Below, in pieces: positions 2,831-59,161 of a DNA stretch of 64,000 bases (positions are counted from its first letter, which is position 1; each line of letters opens with the position of its first letter). Under the pieces are notes generated by a model. The model did no database searches. It was not told the origin of the DNA and saw only the letters and a program-made list of their open reading frames with translations. The position numbers and the translations under genes were made by a program. This DNA is from a virus: IMG/VR virus record IMGVR_UViG_3300045988_144119, positions 13,719 to 77,718 of that record; one strand, 5' to 3'.

Positions 2831-5800
2831 CTATTGCATAAACACCCTAATCCCAGCCCCTTTGGAATTTGCGCTTGGTGCAAACACACGGTCTATCCTG
2901 TCCGAAAGGATTTCCAAATACCTCGTCTGCGCCCTCAACTCAACAAGCATGGGGTTAGATTCGCCCGATTGGGATTCTAAGCTGTAGTGGGCCTCTAATA
3001 GCACTCTGATTGCGGCTATGTCAGTTGTCTGTTGATTGACAAAGAACCTAATAGAATTAAGTAATGCTTCAAGAACTTTTGCTGTGGTTTCTGATATACC
3101 TTGTATACTTTGAGTAAGTGCCGACAATTCAGCCTTTTTGTTAGGCTTGTACCCCAAAGTTTCCATCAATGCGAGAAGGTCTTCATTTAGCCCTTCAAGA
3201 GCCGTTTTACCGATTGATTGGATGTTTGCAAGCTCTTCTTTAGTGAGGTTAATCCCTCCTACGCTCCCCTCTGTAACAGATTCATCTATTTTCTCAAACA
3301 GCTCCTTCAAACGCCCTTGCGCAAGTCTCATTGTAGCTTGTTTGACGATAAGATTTTCAATAAAACTATCAAAGTTTTCATTAAGGGCTTTTAGTCCATC
3401 TTCTGTTTCATTGAAAGCATCCATCCATGCTTGAACAAATGAAGAGGCGGCATCCTTATATTCTGACTCCCCACCTATACCTCCTAATTCTAATTTCTGT
3501 TGGTCTAAAATTTCTTGTCTTGTCTTTTTCAGTTCATTTATAGCATCATTCCATTCATCAATACGTCCTCTATCAGAATCTTTCTTTGCCTCTTCTGAGT
3601 TAATCATATTTTCATATGATTCAATCTGTTGGTCTAAATTGGCTATTGTATCTTTGGTTTGTGTACGAAGATCATCTGCACTCCAAGCGGCTTCCATCTT
3701 CTCCTTTAACTCATCGTATGCCCTACCAAGTGATTCTATATTCTTTATTTGCCGTTGGATTTCACGTTCTTTCTTCTTGTTCTTATTGCCAATGCCGAAT
3801 ATGCTACCGATTGTCTTGCCAAGTCCGGTGAGTACATTCAGAGAGCTACTTATTGGCTTTGTTATGTCAAAACTTTCAAGAGAACCGAATAATGCACCTA
3901 CACCATCTAAAATTTCATAAAGGTCTTCTCCTATTGCAACACCGAAACTATCCTCCAACATGTGAGCAAAGTCTGATACCGAATTTGTAATACCCGATAT
4001 ACTTTCAACCATACCTCCACCCATATCAATCTTTCCAAGAGATTGTATTATCCCTTGTAGCTTTTGAGCCTGTTGCGACAAAGCTCTGTTGGCAGCATCA
4101 TATCCGGCTACTATCTCGTCTTGCTTTTTCTTCTTGTCAACTAATAAATCGTAGTTATTTTGTTCAACTTCATATTCTTCAAATGCTGCATCTATATTTT
4201 CAGTAGCGGATTCATAAGCTGCTTTCTTTTCTGCTACTATTTTACTTTGCGTGCGTAATTGTTCCTCATATTTTGCTTGCAAATCTCTCGCTTTAGCCTC
4301 GTCCTTCTCATTTTTTGCATTTTCTTTACGGAGCTTTGTATATTCCTTGAGAGATTTTGTTAACTTATTCCACGGGTCTCTTTGGTTAAGCTGTTTGTCA
4401 AGTTTTTCTTCTTGCTCCATTATTTGCTTCAACTCTGTAGGTGACAAGTCTTTTGATTCCTCACGCATTTTCACAAGCTTATCTTTCATGCTTTGCAATG
4501 CTGCGGTAGAATAATATTCTATATTGTCAAACAGGTTAAGATAGCTGTCCGATGAAGTAAATTCCTTCCATGCGTTATTTGCTGACTTTTTATTGTACAT
4601 CTTAGTCGCATTTTCTTCCAATCTCTTTTGTAAATCTGGAGCGTTTTGGAATTTATCACGTATCTCTTCTAAGTCTTTGTAATACTGTTCATCGAGCTGT
4701 AATTGTTCTGAAAGCTGAGTTTTGTATGATTTGACCAGCCTTTCGGTAGTATCTTGTTGCTCCTTTATGCGCTGCTGATTCAACTTATCCAAATCGGCTA
4801 AGTATTGCTTGTTTGCGTCGGTATCTGCAACAAGGTACTCTCCTTTTGGGAAATTCTTTTCGTATGACGCTTTCATTTCTTTTTCGACATCATCCAATGT
4901 CTTAGCAAGTCCGGGGAACAAAGCCTGCACTTCGGCTTCGGACAGTCCTGCATCTTTCAGCTTCTGGTGTAAGTCTAAGCTGTTGAACATGGATTCTATG
5001 TTCTTCTTGGTCTTGTCGAGCTGTTTCTTAATATTTTCTACATCATCGCTATCCAGCAGTTGATATGAATCATTTATAGCACCTTGCTTCTTCCTAAAAT
5101 CTGTGATTATCTTTGAAATTTCCTGCAATGCTTTTGCTATATTCTGCTTGTTTGGCAAAAACGCATCTCCAATGATGTTCTTTGGCATATTCACGTTTTT
5201 GAGAGAATCTGCATAACGCTCCATAACAGTCTTAGCAGCCTTATCGCTGCCCATTACCTTGCTCAGCTTCTCGTATTCCTTATTAAGCTCTTTAATAAGA
5301 GAAATGCGCTCTGCTAATATGTCACGTTTATGTTTGGAGTCTGATTCAGGTTCTTCTTTATTTATCCCTGGTCTAAGAGGAACTTTTATATCTCCCAAAT
5401 TATATATATCGTATGCAAGTTGCTTTTTTATATCAGACCATTCTTTGGAAAATTCTCCTTTATTGATTAAAATCTTAAATTGTTCCCTTGTCTTATTACC
5501 TTTTATTACCTCATCATTTACAGAATCAAATATTTCACGTATTTCTTTAACTGCTTTTTCTTTATCTTTCTCCCAATCTTTCCTTGTTCCAAGAAACGAG
5601 CTAGCGATAGAACTTTTCTTACCTGCAAAAAGGACCCCGTTCTGTAACTTCTCCAAGTAGTCCGCAAGCCTTTTGTAGTAGTCGATTAAATCCTCTCCTT
5701 CTTTTTTCCCCTTTACAAGTTCTTGTATGTATTCTTTTGCTCCTTTACCCAAGGAAGTTGATTCTTCTGAAAGCCTTAATAGTTCAGCTTGTATTTTATT

Positions 5801-9772: not shown

Positions 9773-10213
9773 TCAGTATTTACCGTTCTTTATAATTCCA
9801 AAAGTTGAACCTTTAATTCTGTTACTTAATGCTTTGAGTTGGTTTTGAGCAATGGCGATTACCTCATATTTGTACTTTTCCTGTAATATTTGTCCGTATG
9901 GCATTGCGGCTACTATCACAAGGTCAATTCCATCATGAGGCTTATATTTACGTTCAAGAAAATCCGTTATCGCATCACGTCCGTATAGCGGCTCTCTCTC
10001 CCAAATTCTTGGGGCTAACGCGTATTTCGTTTGATAACCGCTTTTGGATAGTTTGCCATTAACATATATTCCCCATCCGTAGCTATCATGAAGGTTGTCT
10101 GTATCATTTTTATAAGTAACCCTATTCAATTCTTCTGCAATTATTTTGTCAGCTTCTTCCGATAAGAACTTTATAAGTTTATTCAATGAATCTGTTTTAA
10201 CCTTCTTTGCCAT
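9773..10213 (-). CDS. neck / tail-completion candidate
   Basis: 146 aa; positional only. Confidence 0.35.
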   Translation of the reverse strand: MAKKVKTDSLNKLIKFLSEEADKIIAEELNRVTYKNDTDNLHDSYGWGIYVNGKLSKSGYQTKYALAPRIWEREPLYGRDAITDFLERKYKPHDGIDLVIVAAMPYGQILQEKYKYEVIAIAQNQLKALSNRIKGSTFGIIKNGKY

Positions 10214-13661: not shown

Positions 13662-13736
13662 ACACTATATGTTTTATAATGATTATATGCGAAAGTAATG
13701 CTTTAACAAAAAGATATAACTATAAAAAAATCACTG

Positions 13737-15472: not shown

Positions 15473-16654
15473 ATGTATATGCAGCGAGTAGAACGACATA
15501 TTATCATTGGTAACAAGTACTTGGACAGGCTTTGTTTCCTATCCAAGAATTTGTACAACTACGCAAACTATATGATTCGTCAGGAGTTTACGAAGAGTGG
15601 TAAGTTGCTTCCTGAATACGGATTGACAGCTTTACTTGCCAAGGAAAAACAAATGGATTATACATCTCTTCCTGCGAAGACCAGTCAACAGGTTGTTGCT
15701 CTTCTATTCAAGAATTGGAAGTCGTTTTTTAAACTATGTAAATGCAAGGACAAGCTTAATGGTAAACCGAAACCTCCGAAGTATAAACATAAGACGAAAG
15801 GACGAAATATAGTCGTATTCACCTATCAGCAATGCAAGTTGAAGGACGGATACATTCACTTTCCGAAGAAAGTAAACATACAACCGTTAAGAACAAAAGT
15901 AACTAATTTGCGTCAGGTTCGCATTATCCCGCAATGTAGTTGCCATATCATAGAAGTAGTATATGAAAAAGAAAGTATTGAAACCACCGGACTTGAACCA
16001 AACTCTTATTTAAGTATTGACTTGGGATTGAACAACCTTGCAACTTCCTATGATTCGCTATGTCATAAGAGCTTTATCATAAATGGCAGAATATTGAAAT
16101 CCATAAACCAATACTTCAACAAGAGGAAAACTAAGTTAATGAGTTTCATTGGAGGGAAAGGTACAAGTAGGCGAATAGGGAAACTAACACTAAAGCGGAA
16201 TTGTAAAGTGAATGACTATATGCACAAGACTTCCCGATTTATTGTAAACTATTGTATTGATAATCATATTGATACTATTGTAATAGGTAATAACAAAGAT
16301 TGGAAGCAGCAAATAAATATGGGGAAACGTAACAATCAAAACTTTGTCAGCATCCCATTTGAAAAGCTAATCTCTCAGATACAGTACAAGTCCGAAGAAG
16401 TGGGAATTAAGGTCGTAATAACCGAAGAAAGTTATACTTCCAAAATAGACCACTACGCAGGCGAAGAGATGTGTCAACATGAAACATATTTAGGTAAGCG
16501 CATACAAAGAGGTCTATTCCGTAGCAGTACAGGTAAAATCCTGAATGCTGATCTAAACGGAGCGATAGGGATTTTAAGAAAAGTAGTTGGCGAAAGCATC
16601 TCGCAAGTAGTCAATAGAGGGGGAGTGGAGACCCCAACGAGATTGCTGGTGTAA
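15473..16654 (+). CDS. tnpB: TnpB-like RNA-guided nuclease (IS200/IS605 family accessory protein, no TnpA)
   Basis: 393 aa. The RuvC triad is visible: LSIDLGLNNLA (D), ITEESYTSK (E), NADLNGAIGILRK (D). The usual CxxC..CxxC zinc finger between RuvC-II and III is absent. Confidence 0.85.
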   Translation: MYMQRVERHIIIGNKYLDRLCFLSKNLYNYANYMIRQEFTKSGKLLPEYGLTALLAKEKQMDYTSLPAKTSQQVVALLFKNWKSFFKLCKCKDKLNGKPKPPKYKHKTKGRNIVVFTYQQCKLKDGYIHFPKKVNIQPLRTKVTNLRQVRIIPQCSCHIIEVVYEKESIETTGLEPNSYLSIDLGLNNLATSYDSLCHKSFIINGRILKSINQYFNKRKTKLMSFIGGKGTSRRIGKLTLKRNCKVNDYMHKTSRFIVNYCIDNHIDTIVIGNNKDWKQQINMGKRNNQNFVSIPFEKLISQIQYKSEEVGIKVVITEESYTSKIDHYAGEEMCQHETYLGKRIQRGLFRSSTGKILNADLNGAIGILRKVVGESISQVVNRGGVETPTRLLV

Positions 16655-40912: not shown

Positions 40913-41833
40913 TCATTTAATTTTTAAGAAGTTGCTCATTCGCTCAATGCATCTTTGTTTTTGATTGAGATTGGGATGCACATATAAATTGAGTGTGGTA
41001 GCGATATTCGAATGTCCAAGAATTACACTCACTGTCTTATAATCGCATTGACTTTCAATGCATCTGGTAGCAAATGTATGCCGGAGTCCATGAAACACAA
41101 TGTGCGGAATATTCAGACGCTTCAAGAGCCGGGCAAAGAAATCACGGTAAGAACGGGGATCTTCCGGACGTCCTGATGTTCCTACTACAAATCGGGACGG
41201 AGATATTTTCTTTACTTCCTTCAAGGCAAAGAGAAGCTGTCTTGAGATAGGTATCTCCCGGTATGAATTTCGTGTTTTGGGAGAAGTGAAAGTCCTTTCC
41301 GTAGTTCTTGATTCGCAGTTGTATATCCTTCCTGCTGTATAACTAATGGTGATTACCTTCTGTCTGAAATCCACATCTTCCCATCGCAGGGCACACACCT
41401 CTCCAATCCTCATGCCGGTACACAGAGACAGCAGAATGCCTATATTCTTAGGAGTTGGGGATTCGGTGAGATGGCTCATCAGTATCTGTTGATGGTTTAA
41501 GGACAAAGTAGGCAAACGGTGAGATTCGGTATCTGTAGGATAGTTTATCTCCCACTCCTCATAAGGGAATAACTTATGTTTCCCACCATACTTGACTATA
41601 GATTTCAGCACCGCCACAATATCCCTTACGGTTTTTTTAGCAAGACCAGAGGAAAGCTTGTAGAGAACAAATTTCTGAACGTCGCTTTCCGATATAGCTG
41701 TCGCCGTCCCATAATATGGGAGTAAATGGGTTTGAAGGGTAAGCATATACGCGCACATCGTGGCATGCTTTATAATGGGCTGCTTCGCAGCACTCCAAAT
41801 CCTGGCGACTTCTTGAAATGTTTTAGTATTCAT
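40913..41833 (-). CDS. int: tyrosine recombinase / integrase
   Basis: GMRIGEVCALRWEDVD (Arg), HGLRHTFATRCIE (H-x-x-R), LGHSNIATTLNLYVH (His, Tyr). Confidence 0.85.
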   Translation of the reverse strand: MNTKTFQEVARIWSAAKQPIIKHATMCAYMLTLQTHLLPYYGTATAISESDVQKFVLYKLSSGLAKKTVRDIVAVLKSIVKYGGKHKLFPYEEWEINYPTDTESHRLPTLSLNHQQILMSHLTESPTPKNIGILLSLCTGMRIGEVCALRWEDVDFRQKVITISYTAGRIYNCESRTTERTFTSPKTRNSYREIPISRQLLFALKEVKKISPSRFVVGTSGRPEDPRSYRDFFARLLKRLNIPHIVFHGLRHTFATRCIESQCDYKTVSVILGHSNIATTLNLYVHPNLNQKQRCIERMSNFLKIK

Positions 41834-44046: not shown

Positions 44047-44117
44047 TGGTAATAGGAGGGAGATTCGAACTCCCTTCTCTCTTAAGAGACTTCACTACCA
44101 CGCAAAGTTTTCCTATT
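44047..44117 (-). ncRNA. tRNA-like element lacking an anticodon arm, with encoded ACCA end
   Basis: Acceptor AATAGGA/TCCTATT (7 bp), D arm ACTT-TGCGTGGTAGTG-AAGT, T arm GGGAG-TTCGAAT-CTCCC, discriminator A plus CCA. Only TCTCTTAAGAGA stands where the 17-nt anticodon arm should be. Confidence 0.6.
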
Positions 44118-44259
44118 CCAGCTTTTTACGACATTAGCTTAGCCGTTGACTTATCGTATTACGCTGTAACACGAGTATAGTCTGTTACGAAAGATTTGTC
44201 ATTTCTGACGTCTATTGACCTATTCATTTTCATCTTCGCTGTCAAAACCAGATAGCCCC
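44118..44259 (-). ncRNA. tmRNA 5'-piece-like RNA (coding-piece candidate)
   Basis: Starts GGGGCTATCTGGTTTTGACAGCG (compare E. coli GGGGCTGATTCTGGATTCGACGGG). Contains AATAGAC followed by a 16-codon ORF ending TAA (44209-44159). The 3' boundary is not defined. Confidence 0.55.
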
Positions 44260-44346
44260 TTCGTTGTTTCTTTGTTATCGTAGTGAAACGCCACGGTCAG
44301 AAAGTTCTATGTCCTGATTTTACAAGATACTTTGCAAAGTAATTTG

Positions 44347-44398
44347 TGGAGCTAGAGGGAGTCGAACCCTCGTCCAAACGATTCATCTAATGACCTAA
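44347..44398 (-). ncRNA. tmRNA 3'-piece-like RNA (acceptor-piece candidate) or ssrA-type attP core
   Basis: GGAC GAGGG TTCGACT CCCTC TAGCTCC A; the acceptor strand is complementary to GGGGCTA at 44259-44253, including a G3-U pair. Confidence 0.6.
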
Positions 44399-44720
44399 CA
44401 GTCAATATAGTAGTATATAGTTAAATCAATAACTATATACTTAAATATAATAAACTGTAGGTAAGTATAATAAAAATAATAATCGGAAATATACTTATTA
44501 AATATAAAGGCAGATGCTTACTCTATATTTAAAGATTTACTTCTATATCTAATAATAGCGTCAATTATTACTTTACTATAGGCTCTAGGCTCGCTTACTC
44601 TACAGTTTTAAATAGGCTTTGATTGCATGTATAGTATAGCAAGTGCTCACGCAGAACGGACTCGATTGAACTATAGGCATAAAGCTCTCTATACATATAC
44701 AATTTGATTTTGTGTACATC

Positions 44721-52166: not shown

Positions 52167-52529
52167 TTATTCCAAAGTCTTAATCGTAATCTCAACCCGA
52201 GGATTATCCTTATCTACGAATTTACGTGCATGGATAAGACAACAATTGTTATCGTTCTTGATACATTTGATTCGCTGCAACACGTCAAGTTGTAGTTTTA
52301 ATACGTTATCAAGGTCGCTCCGTTTACTTGGGTAGTACACGTCAATGTAGAACTCAAATGGCTCGTTGATATTCAAATCCCTCAACTTCCCTGCCTGCCA
52401 GATAAACGATTCCTCATATTTTTTCAGAGCTGGAGTTTTCGCCAAACATCCGTGCCCATTAATGGTTACTATTTTATAACAATTAGCCTTAGAAGGGGCA
52501 TTCCCGTTAATTATTGTTTTATATTCCAT
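52167..52529 (-). CDS. rusA: RusA-like Holliday junction resolvase
   Basis: APSKANCYK, RSDLDNVLKLQLDVL and KNDNN parallel E. coli RusA PSNNRYY, RRDLDNLQKAAFDAL, DD (from memory); start at 52529. Confidence 0.75.
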   Translation of the reverse strand: MEYKTIINGNAPSKANCYKIVTINGHGCLAKTPALKKYEESFIWQAGKLRDLNINEPFEFYIDVYYPSKRSDLDNVLKLQLDVLQRIKCIKNDNNCCLIHARKFVDKDNPRVEITIKTLE

Positions 52530-52619: not shown

Positions 52620-52872
52620 AGGTGGTAGCAGGACTTGCACCTGCATGATTGTTATGCTGCTCATTTACATCTTTTATCGCCTACTATGAATAAGGCTCGC
52701 TGTTGTAGGTTTTGGTATCCGTCACCGATTGATTAATAACCATCGAATGCTTCGTTTACCTGATATGCTGGTCTCCTTTTCGCCAACCTTTCCCGATTAT
52801 CATTTCCTATAATCCTCAGCTTAGAGCATCAATCTACTGCTTAATAGCGTCTTCTAATTCCGCCATACCACC
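52620..52872 (-). ncRNA. 253-nt RNA candidate with a split tRNA-Leu-like frame
   Basis: 5' GGTGGTA-TGGCGGAATTAGAAGACGC (tRNA-Leu D-arm-like) at 52872-52847. 3' GCAGG-TGCAAGT-CCTGC-TACCACC at 52644-52621. The terminal 7-mers pair perfectly. No ORF. Confidence 0.5.
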
Positions 52873-57996: not shown

Positions 57997-58018
57997 AATA
58001 ACTACGTTTAAATATTTG

Positions 58019-58123
58019 TCCGAAAGACAGGAATCGAACCTGCTTCTTGTGGGGTAATGAGACCTACATAAAGAATATGATTATTATTAAATTACCACAT
58101 GCATTCCATAATGCTACTTTCGG
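58019..58123 (-). ncRNA. tRNA-like element with a 42-nt segment in place of the 7-nt anticodon loop
   Basis: Acceptor CCGAAAG/CTTTCGG, D arm GCAT-TATGGA-ATGC, stem TGTGG/CCACA enclosing 42 nt, variable AGAA, T arm GCAGG-TTCGATT-CCTGT, discriminator A. Confidence 0.55.
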
Positions 58124-58198
58124 AGGATGTTCATACCTATATTCACATACCGGCATGAACGGATAATATTACTAACTTAAAAATAGATAGAGAAAATA

Positions 58199-58707: not shown

Positions 58708-59161
58708 GTCATTTAATCATAAGTTTGTTCCCCTCAACAGCTTAAACCGGTTGTTACCCCGAATCTTACGGGAGGGGATATATTAGACCTTTCAGCGATA
58801 CTTGTGCCTAACCAAGCATACTTCTACGCTAAAGACAAATTGGCGTGCTGAAAGTAAATTTCATTTCAACTTCGTGGCTTTACCACCATCAGACATTTAC
58901 AACCATTCGACCGTTATCGTCTTATCTTCGGTTGCTATCGGTGTCAATTCCGTTCCACTTGCACCCACCACTATCTACCATCACTGGCTTCGCTTCTGTG
59001 CCTGCGCAGAAATCATATATAATAATTGTACGGTTTTACCCATACATTATTTCTATTGTATAAATAAATATTTCAAAGAACTATTTTTTTGCTCCCTGCT
59101 CAGTTATCGCTACTGAATTCCGTTCATTCCGTCAACAGGGATAAATGTCTTTAAAGCTTAG

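Follow-up and report, generated by a model that had tools for sequence, protein, structure and literature searches.

A conserved RNA with tRNA-Leu-like ends and a large inner domain in a temperate Bacteroides phage

Results

A tRNA-like shell around a structured inner domain

The 64,000-nucleotide (nt) stretch of viral DNA analysed here (positions 13,719 to 77,718 of IMG/VR record IMGVR_UViG_3300045988_144119; hereafter the window) carries a 253-nt RNA element of a Bacteroides phage on its minus strand (52872-52620). The phage is temperate, and we found that it carries the element as a genuine and conserved RNA gene. Its ends form a tRNA-Leu-like shell, which encloses a payload of about 190-200 nt with six helices, and the element is a member of a large family in which shells and payloads are mixed and matched. 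It is not a tRNA, not a transfer-messenger RNA (tmRNA), not a host of a group I intron and not a member of any Rfam family.

An earlier note on this DNA had described here tRNA-Leu-like ends, a long arm and a large insert, and every feature that it proposed was found at its minus-strand position, exact to the base. The minus strand starts with GGTGGTA-TG-GCGGAATTAGAAGACGC and ends with GCAGG-TGCAAGT-CCTGC-TACCACC-T. The anticodon arm is missing: a 12-nt linker follows the D arm and the inner domain ends 2 nt before the T stem. No open reading frame (ORF) of at least 45 amino acids overlaps the element. Its parts are as follows (bp, base pair).

52872-52866, minus strand: 5' strand of the acceptor stem, GGTGGTA; all seven pairs covary across eight shells.
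52863-52847, minus strand: tRNA-Leu-type D arm GCGGAATTAGAAGACGC (GCG-GAATTAGAAGA-CGC) with an invariant 3-bp stem.
52846-52835, minus strand: unpaired 12-nt linker UAUUAAGCAGUA, invariant in 13 of 13 relatives, in place of the anticodon arm.
52834-52824, minus strand: 5' strands of the closing arm, P1 GATTG, a bulged A and P1b TGCTC; three pairs of P1 and one of P1b covary.
52820-52817 with 52702-52699, minus strand: predicted helix P2, GCUG with CAGC; pair invariant.
52814-52795, minus strand: P3 hairpin GAUUAU-AGGAAAUG-AUAAUC; five of six pairs covary and the loop is invariant.
52787-52767, minus strand: P4 hairpin GUUGGC-GAAAAGGA-GACCAGC; G-C is replaced by U-A in one pair and U-G by C-G in another.
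52761-52707, minus strand: predicted helix P5, AGGU (52761-52758) with ACCU (52710-52707); pairing invariant.
52696-52679, minus strand: predicted P6 hairpin GCCU-UAUUCAUAGU-AGGC; stem invariant.
52678-52663, minus strand: A-rich conserved single strand GAUAAAAGAUGUAAAU.
52662-52647, minus strand: 3' strands of the closing arm, GAGCA, internal loop GCAUAA and CAAUC, from the comparative alignment.
52644-52628, minus strand: T arm GCAGG-UGCAAGU-CCUGC, 2 nt (AU) past the closing arm, with G55 instead of U.
52627-52621, minus strand: 3' strand of the acceptor stem, TACCACC, followed by the discriminator U at 52620; CCA is not encoded.

P5 encloses the conserved stretches GGUAAAC and ACCAAAACCU and a lineage-specific hairpin (52753-52716, between GGUAAAC and ACCAAAACC), in which CGAU/AUCG is replaced by CGAG/CUCG and which is absent from three relatives (L226, L241, L295). 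The D loop of the window lineage lacks the GG18-19 pair.

Comparative evidence for the fold

Relatives were collected from metagenomes and from IMG/VR with short conserved strings of the window payload as seeds. Counts given for the family apply to the IMG/VR and metagenome matches listed and are lower bounds. At least 13 relatives from gut phage and metagenome contigs share the inner domain, and they carry it in eight different shells. We tested an explicit structure of 56 pairs in 12 helices on a 13-sequence alignment. It can be seen that 98.7% of the paired cells pair in the 13 relatives, compared with 29-50% when the partners are slid against each other. For 22 of the 56 pairs both sides change, compared with 2-6 for slid partners; shuffles gave 12.8 ± 1.9 such pairs and none of 500 reached 22. 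These two-sided changes are distributed over the acceptor stem (7 of 7 pairs), P1 (3 of 5), P1b (one), P3 (5 of 6), P4 (one) and the T stem (one). The D stem is invariant among the relatives. The overall topology proposed in the earlier note, with tRNA-like ends, a long closing arm and a large structured insert, is backed by covariation.

The register that had been proposed for the long arm (GATTG-A-TGCTC with GAGCA-GCATAA-CAATC) is confirmed by compensatory changes. In P1, GATTG/CAATC is replaced by GTCTG/CAGAC, GGATG/CATCC or AGATG/CATCT, and in P1b TGCTC/GAGCA is replaced by TGCAC/GTGCA. RNAalifold gave another register for P1b, which we rejected as wrong, since the double change in one relative (L313) keeps TGCTC/GAGCA. 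CAU in the P6 loop (52688-52686) may pair with AUG in the A-rich strand (52670-52668). This loop-to-single-strand pseudoknot (L6 with GAUG) contains two covarying pairs, but an alternative partner column exists and the pairing is tentative. An all-against-all covariation search for additional tertiary pairs among the 13 sequences gave a signal swamped by phylogenetic correlation.

When the single sequence was folded with RNAfold, the architecture was recovered with its terminal helix, T hairpin and long arm, and it was weakly better than shuffles (z = -1.8; z = -2.2 with leader and trailer added). Scanning the window for a T arm next to a 7-bp terminal helix yielded three modules (four hits, one module having two alternative 5' ends), compared with a mean of about 0.55 hits in 20 shuffles. 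The comparative evidence is the decisive part, and the RNA structure is well supported. We consider the structural statement strong.

Conservation of payload and shell

The payload is a multi-helix junction with nearly invariant unpaired nucleotides. Among its unpaired, ungapped columns 69 of 93 (74%) are invariant, and the same is true for 42 of 74 paired payload columns and for 0 of 14 acceptor columns. The invariant stretches comprise the linker UAUUAAGCAGUA, the P3 loop UAGGAAAUGA, GGCGAAAA-GAGACC, GGUAAAC, ACCAAAACCU, ACAGCGAGCCUUAUU and GGCGAUAAAAGA; the hairpin at 52753-52716 varies freely and differs or is absent in other lineages. Compensated helices, frozen loops and junctions and a variable peripheral stem together resemble the pattern of riboswitches, ribozymes and ribonucleoprotein RNAs. 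Since the unpaired payload is largely invariant and the acceptor drifts, we argue that the payload, not the sequence of the shell, would be the selected effector.

The discriminator base is A in nine, U in two and G in two of the 13 relatives. At the elbow, the window RNA has the T loop UGCAAGU (G55) and a D loop without GG, whereas relatives with the same payload have UUCGAxU together with GG. GG in the D loop accompanies UUC in nine of nine relatives, and both have changed in four out of four members of the lineage without GG. This co-change suggests an elbow that is altered but maintained.

In two further loci (L066, about 9908-10068; L265, about 4481-4641), an element of about 170 nt with long terminal inverted repeats (GGAAAAGCCACTCAACTTTGACCCTTTTGGCCACGCA ... 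TGCGTGGCCAAAAGGGTCAAAGTTGAGTGGCTTTTCC) lies in the payload just past P3. It looks like an insertion of the miniature inverted-repeat transposable element type that disrupts the RNA gene.

Exchange of shells and payloads

The window payload occurs in eight shells, the acceptor stems of which are fully compensated (GGTGGTA/TACCACC, TCGGCAG/CTGCCGA, GGTGATG/CATCACC, TTCGGTG/CATCGAA, GGTGGAA/TTCCACC, GGACAGG/CCTGTCC and, in two lineages, GGATAGG/CCTATCC). A profile of the payload searched with nhmmer against 2.9 Mb of loci matched solely inside such shells. Scanning IMG/VR for GGTGGTATGGCGGAA, we found that the GGTGGTA/TACCACC shell (D arm GCGG-AATTGGTAGA-CGC, T arm GCAGG-TTCGAAT-CCTGC) houses at least 12 unrelated inserts in other Bacteroides phages, with RNA lengths of 117, 122, 124, 142, 149, 155, 167, 185, 208, 220 and 252 nt. 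A second payload type is present both in a GGAGAAG shell and in the GGTGGTA shell. The tRNA-Leu likeness of the ends, which the earlier note had recognized, is borne out by one phage contig (L165), in which the same acceptor stem and D arm belong to a normal 85-nt tRNA-Leu.

The junction between shell and payload follows a rule. A linker of 11-20 nt past the D stem is followed by a closing stem, which usually begins with GA... paired to ...TC. In all types for which we found a closing stem, its 3' strand stops 2-4 nt short of the T stem. At least 24 payload variants (distinct payload starts) fit the combination of Leu-type D arm, 7-bp acceptor, T arm and closing stem. The linker of several types has just the length that a decayed anticodon arm (TAAAG-loop-CTTATA) would need. 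Because the arm is positioned 2-4 nt before the T stem, we read it as a probable expanded variable arm of class II and the linker as a probable remnant of the anticodon arm. The arm had originally been placed where the anticodon stem would be, but 12 nt separate it from the D stem and 2 nt from the T stem, a spacing that corresponds to a class II variable arm. This family of shells and payloads was not found in Rfam 15, nor was it described in the literature that we searched.

Several other tRNA-like genes were observed in related phages. Two loci (L141, 8276-8335, minus strand; L150, 4632-4691, plus strand) contain 60-nt genes with acceptor, D and T arms, a leader hairpin each and no anticodon arm (GCTCCCT-TA-GCTCAGTTGGTCAGAGC-CTTTAGGGTC-GCCGGTTCGAGTCCGGC-AGGGAGC). 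Genes of 81-84 nt (L007, 6146-6228; L008, 11916-11999; L012, 2010-2092) have a conserved oversized anticodon loop with UUGCGCAA, and ARAGORN called them tRNA-Arg(gcg) or assigned a four-base anticodon 'tgcg'; the motif GCGCA recurs in odd loops of several further cassette RNAs. The commonest cassette RNA (about 147 nt, GGGGGTG...CATCTCC-A; L003, L006, L008 and about 30 other loci) carries G3:U70, A73 and a variable-arm-like hairpin, and ARAGORN called it neither tRNA nor tmRNA. We take G3:U70 with A73 to be the alanine/tmRNA identity set.

Comparison with tRNA, tmRNA and intron models

With default settings ARAGORN detected no tRNA or tmRNA in the whole window, and neither its intron mode nor the -m option gave a call at the element. 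The only call in the window with introns allowed was a tRNA-Met at 58018-58123 with an oddly placed 33-nt insert. The Infernal search of Rfam that the earlier note had proposed (window, a 900-nt region and three relatives, at gathering and relaxed thresholds) found no family on the element at E ≤ 10, apart from the small RNA GibS at chance level. This match (22 bits, E = 1.5) rests on UUCAUAGUA...GAUAAAAGAU, and we dismissed it since the loop varies among relatives. In the window, Rfam matched a DUF2693-FD RNA and a permuted tmRNA (see below).

As in the tRNA family RF00005, a 7-bp acceptor stem is closed by both ends of the element, but RF00005 gave no match on it at E ≤ 10, and a 5-bp/7-nt anticodon arm with U33 is absent. 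Without an anticodon arm, decoding is excluded. A73 is named as a major determinant for leucyl-tRNA synthetase (LeuRS) in PMC2377443, and no fixed synthetase identity of this kind is kept among the relatives, in which the discriminator is A, U or G. Leucine charging of the element is therefore doubtful.

The kinship with tmRNA that had been considered did not hold. The window element has U-A at position 3:70 and the relatives have A-U, G-C or C-G there, so that the G3:U70 pair of tmRNA is absent. A tag-peptide ORF is not conserved: frames starting from the shared GCA read AYQVNEAFDGY*, ARR*, AYIR* and A*, and frames and lengths differ between relatives. The tmRNA models RF00023 and RF04321 matched the window only at 44159-44406 and not on the element. 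Charging or tmRNA-like action is unlikely for this member of the family.

The idea of an intron-containing tRNA fared no better, as no exon halves able to rebuild an anticodon arm are conserved. No match to RF00028 (Intron_gpI) or to a ribozyme model was obtained in the window region (E ≤ 10) or in three shorter relatives (E ≤ 5), in line with the earlier remark that the insert is too short for a typical group I intron. Deleting the payload in silico (1365 constructs) produced arbitrary anticodons and no preferred junction, and we regard these deletions as uninformative. Hammerhead-like CUGAGGA and strings resembling P, Q, R and S of group I introns were noticed by eye, but flanking core elements were missing or unconserved. 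A role as sponge for the anti-Shine-Dalgarno sequence is unlikely, since the Shine-Dalgarno-like AAGGAG in the P4 loop varies (AAUGAG, AAAGAG).

Flanking signals of the cassette

The element is flanked by the following features.

52923-52916, minus strand: candidate Bacteroides-type -7 box TGCATTTG, imperfect; in relatives a perfect TAACTTTG occupies this position.
52908-52879, minus strand: leader hairpin GCCTTCCC-GGTCTGTGAAGAT-A-GGGCGGGC, with a conserved loop and a stem that varies from one phage group to the next.
52878-52873, minus strand: spacer AAACAT, which ends with U-1 and adjoins G+1; CAAA(C/T)(A/T)T is conserved in many loci.
52619-52570, minus strand: conserved 3' trailer (CAUAAAUGUGAGCCACACAUAAAUGG...) with the direct repeat ACATAAATG-N8-ACATAAATG.
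52569-52546, minus strand: GC-rich hairpin followed by UUUAAUAAAA, presumed intrinsic terminator; relatives have GGGGCTTTTAAT.

In many contigs the same unit recurs, consisting of the TAACTTTG box, the leader hairpin with loop GGTCTGTGAAGAT, the spacer CAAACAT, a variable tRNA-like RNA, the trailer and the GC hairpin. The genes up- and downstream of this unit differ between contigs, and it therefore behaves as a self-contained cassette ('moron'). The leader hairpin loop G(G)TCYGTGARGATA is conserved before many tRNA-like genes (L007, L012, L016, L029 and others), where the stems covary and the hairpin is followed by CAAAC/T-A/T-T and then by G+1; other phage groups have a hairpin with a GAAAG(A) loop in this position. 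It could be a signal for processing, stability or regulation. Exact copies of a 23-mer of the trailer were counted in more than 118 contigs of IMG/VR and in three Bacteroides genomes (prophages of two isolates and one metagenome-assembled genome). Bacteroides sp. KFT8 and f07 harbour prophage relatives. The trailer also occurs 3' of protein-coding genes without a tRNA-like RNA (second site in L006), and it may be a protein-binding or recombination module. In one contig its reverse complement CACATTTATG is inserted in the leader loop.

U-1/G+1 is the presumed RNase P site, and tRNA-style processing of the element appears plausible from its surroundings. The 3' flank reads N73-C-purine without CCA, as in the canonical tRNA genes of this phage group. 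In two relatives (L241, L226) the RNA lies within tRNA arrays, and a canonical tRNA with a score of 74 bits is found 8 nt away from the copy in L241. Moreover, ARAGORN calls the shell a tRNA in 463 of the 1365 payload-deleted constructs.

Genomic setting and other RNA genes of the window

The window belongs to a temperate siphovirus-like Bacteroides phage and encodes an integrase, Dam, DnaB, a DnaD-like loader, Erf, NinB, RusA, Rha, portal and terminase proteins; a YdcK-like solenoid and TnpB were also identified. The element lies in the early replication and recombination region between the gene of the YdcK-like beta-solenoid and a RusA-family gene, which is located directly downstream (52167-52529). 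Among 30 scanned window proteins we saw no RNA-processing, SmpB-like, synthetase-like or transferase gene. The element shares 13 identical nt with a phage gene 2.2 kb upstream; the match has the orientation of sense rather than antisense and was attributed to chance. The TnpB-like ORF (15473-16654, plus strand; OrfB_IS605 and Cas12f-like TNB domain) lies between terminase-like and portal genes.

According to the earlier note, the element is one of four tRNA-like modules of a single operon, which holds only loosely. Three further modules do exist on the same strand (58020-58123, 44047-44117 and the permuted tmRNA at 44159-44406), but distances of 5-8 kb and numerous genes separate them, and a leader hairpin of its own precedes each of the two upstream modules.

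The gene at 58020-58123 (minus strand) is tRNA-Met-like (Rfam tRNA, 46 bits, 58019-58123, relaxed threshold) with an anticodon loop of about 42 nt. In its intron mode ARAGORN assigned the anticodon CAT and a 33-nt insert at 30/31, which relatives with lengths of 104-108 nt have kept. Its leader (58127-58165) contains the same type of hairpin, GTTCATGCC-GGTATGTGAATAT-AGGTATGAAC. About 1 kb upstream of this module, 59093-59141 (minus strand) matches the known phage-associated motif DUF2693-FD RNA (RF02926, 61 bits). The match at 44159-44406 (minus strand) to RF04321, the permuted two-piece tmRNA, is complete (58 bits, gathering score 47), and some 2.3 kb separate it from the gene of the integrase (40913-41833). 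Just downstream of this tmRNA, 44047-44117 (minus strand) holds a 67-nt tRNA-like gene with encoded ACCA. It consists of the acceptor AATAGGA/TCCTATT, a D arm, the T arm GGGAG-TTCGAAT-CTCCC and an 'anticodon' arm with 4-bp stem and 4-nt loop (CTCT-TAAG-AGAG). Similar 67-nt forms occur in five other loci (L016, L045, L050, L082, L088).

Discussion

Our data are consistent with the function of a natural tRNA scaffold, to which we give an even chance: a non-decoding RNA in which a tRNA-Leu-derived shell would provide processing and stability and the payload would act as effector. According to this model, the cassette would be transcribed from the possible -7 box through leader hairpin, RNA and trailer to the terminator. 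Host RNase P would cleave at G52872, the tRNA 3'-end machinery would trim past 52620, and CCA would be added. The shell would thereby confer exact ends and tRNA-like stability. The payload would most likely bind a conserved macromolecule or ligand, or be catalytic; pairing with variable targets is less likely. With a confidence clearly below even, we suggest as a more far-reaching version that the shells form a natural exchangeable scaffold for a library of structured RNAs. The window domain (a six-helix junction in which 74% of the unpaired bases are invariant and a pseudoknot is possible) might then represent a new functional class, which would act during infection or lysogeny either as a ribozyme or by binding a conserved host component with high affinity.

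Several observations weigh against this interpretation. The relatives were found with exact seeds from the window sequence, which biases them to close kin and under-samples diversity. P2, P5, P6 and the D stem do not vary in the 13 relatives and hence have no covariation support. The conservation of the unpaired bases could in part reflect recent recombinational spread rather than long-term selection. The Bacteroides -7 consensus is TAnnTTTG, and the strict pattern TTTG-N-TAnnTTTG fails to match the -7 region of the window; a simple terminator scan did not call the hairpin at 52569-52546, which has a weak T tract. As the -7 box is imperfect and the terminator was not called, independent transcription is an inference, and so are the promoter, the processing and the addition of CCA. 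Finally, a scaffold leaves the strict retention of the D arm unexplained by itself.

Four other explanations were considered, and we rank them in the order in which they follow. The shell itself may be active as a decoy or sponge for host factors that read acceptor, T and D parts (tRNA-targeting defence toxins that act at acceptor ends, tRNA-modifying or -processing enzymes, LeuRS), and the payload would merely block entry into the ribosome. Many tRNA-like genes of related Bacteroides phages lack the anticodon arm or have a crippled one (the 60-nt forms, and the 67-nt forms with a 4-nt loop such as that at 44047-44117), which suggests selection on the upper half of tRNA, and the D arm is strictly conserved. 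However, a stuffer should drift, whereas unpaired payload bases are far better conserved than the acceptor; the elbow of the window lineage, with no GG in the D loop and with G55, is odd for a faithful tRNA mimic, and the discriminator varies. We regard a decoy as rather unlikely. An aminoacylated shell that enters the ribosome with a protein partner, or that feeds a non-ribosomal transferase, is unlikely. LeuRS is not known to need the anticodon, and tmRNA enters ribosomes with SmpB. In addition, this phage also encodes a permuted tmRNA, G3:U70 with A73 is found in the GGGGGTG...CATCTCC-A cassette, and the architecture resembles that of tmRNA in that a helix leaves the upper-half tRNA in the direction of the variable arm (PMC3985003). 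On the other hand, the U-A pair at 3:70, the variable discriminator (A73 being key for LeuRS; PMC2377443), a payload without conserved reading frame and the lack of an SmpB-like or transferase gene among the 30 scanned proteins argue against such a carrier.

Bacterial group I introns classically reside in tRNA genes. The payload is conserved like a ribozyme, and the way in which one payload turns up in many shells, and one shell with many payloads, recalls the mobility of introns. The element might thus be an interrupted tRNA-Leu gene, from which a new mobile intron, self-splicing or cut and ligated, would be excised to give a functional tRNA. Against this, no intron or ribozyme model matched at E ≤ 10, and the core payload measures about 168 nt in L241, less than known group I introns with their roughly 200 nt or more. 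Moreover, the payload flanks cannot rebuild a 5-bp/7-nt anticodon arm together with a variable arm and are wholly different between payload types of the same shell, ARAGORN in its intron mode fails, and the deletions give no preferred junction, which makes an intron very unlikely. There may also be no independent RNA, the sequence being a cis-acting leader of the downstream rusA-like gene or a site at the DNA level (attP-like or for recombination). The location directly upstream of the RusA-family gene, the terminator-like hairpin past the element and the recombination-prone flanks common to many phages would agree with this, but the same RNA is found upstream of unrelated genes and in tRNA arrays without the trailer, and the compensatory changes keep RNA helices that a DNA site does not need. 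We consider this explanation extremely unlikely.

Returning to the natural tRNA scaffold, its closest functional analogy is the engineered tRNA scaffold (approach of Ponchon and Dardel, used in PMC3082893), in which a tRNA shell around a foreign structured RNA gives tRNA-like processing and stability. The engineered scaffold is man-made and its insert replaces the anticodon arm, whereas the phage element is natural and evolving and would carry its payload at the position of the variable arm. Class II tRNA-Leu shares with the element essentially the acceptor and the D arm (3-bp stem, GCGGAAUUGGUAGACGC type; compare L165) and an extra arm 2 nt before the T stem. The element differs from it by the 12-nt linker, a 'variable arm' of about 190 nt with six helices and an unfixed discriminator, and it escapes ARAGORN and Rfam. 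With tmRNA, the 5' end of which is made by RNase P and the connector helix of which leaves the tRNA-like domain in the direction of the variable arm (PMC3985003), it has in common an upper-half tRNA without anticodon arm and a long irregular helix leading to a large structured domain, the geometry being judged from the spacing. It differs from tmRNA in lacking G3:U70, a tag ORF and a model match, it keeps a full D arm, and its inner domain of about 200 nt is unrelated in sequence.

Noncoding RNAs with a tRNA-like module are also known from YrlA (RF02553), which combines such a module (T arm, D arm and acceptor-like helix) with a long protein-binding helix and occurs in phages as well. YrlA is circularly permuted, both of its ends lying in the long stem that binds Ro/Rsr and its acceptor-like helix being closed, whereas the ends of our element form the acceptor stem; RF02553 gave no match on the element or on the three relatives scanned. 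The species 1 and 2 RNAs of phage T4 and the TMERs (tRNA-miRNA RNAs) of murine herpesvirus 68 (MHV68) are stable RNAs from viral tRNA clusters. They have tRNA-like ends or modules, undergo processing by the tRNA machinery and take no part in decoding. TMERs carry their extra RNA after the tRNA-like part and not inside it, and we know of no sequence or architectural homology of the T4 RNAs or the TMERs to the element.

If the scaffold interpretation is true, gut phages would have invented the tRNA scaffold long before biotechnology and would use it in a modular way. The family would form a new branch beside tmRNA and YrlA among the tRNA-derived non-decoding RNAs, and it would account for the silence of tRNA finders in genomes that are rich in tRNA-like genes. 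For structural and pull-down work, the payloads would offer candidates that come with a scaffold of their own. The abundant viruses of the human gut would then hold a reservoir of structured RNAs, the conserved loops of which point to a partner or to chemistry.

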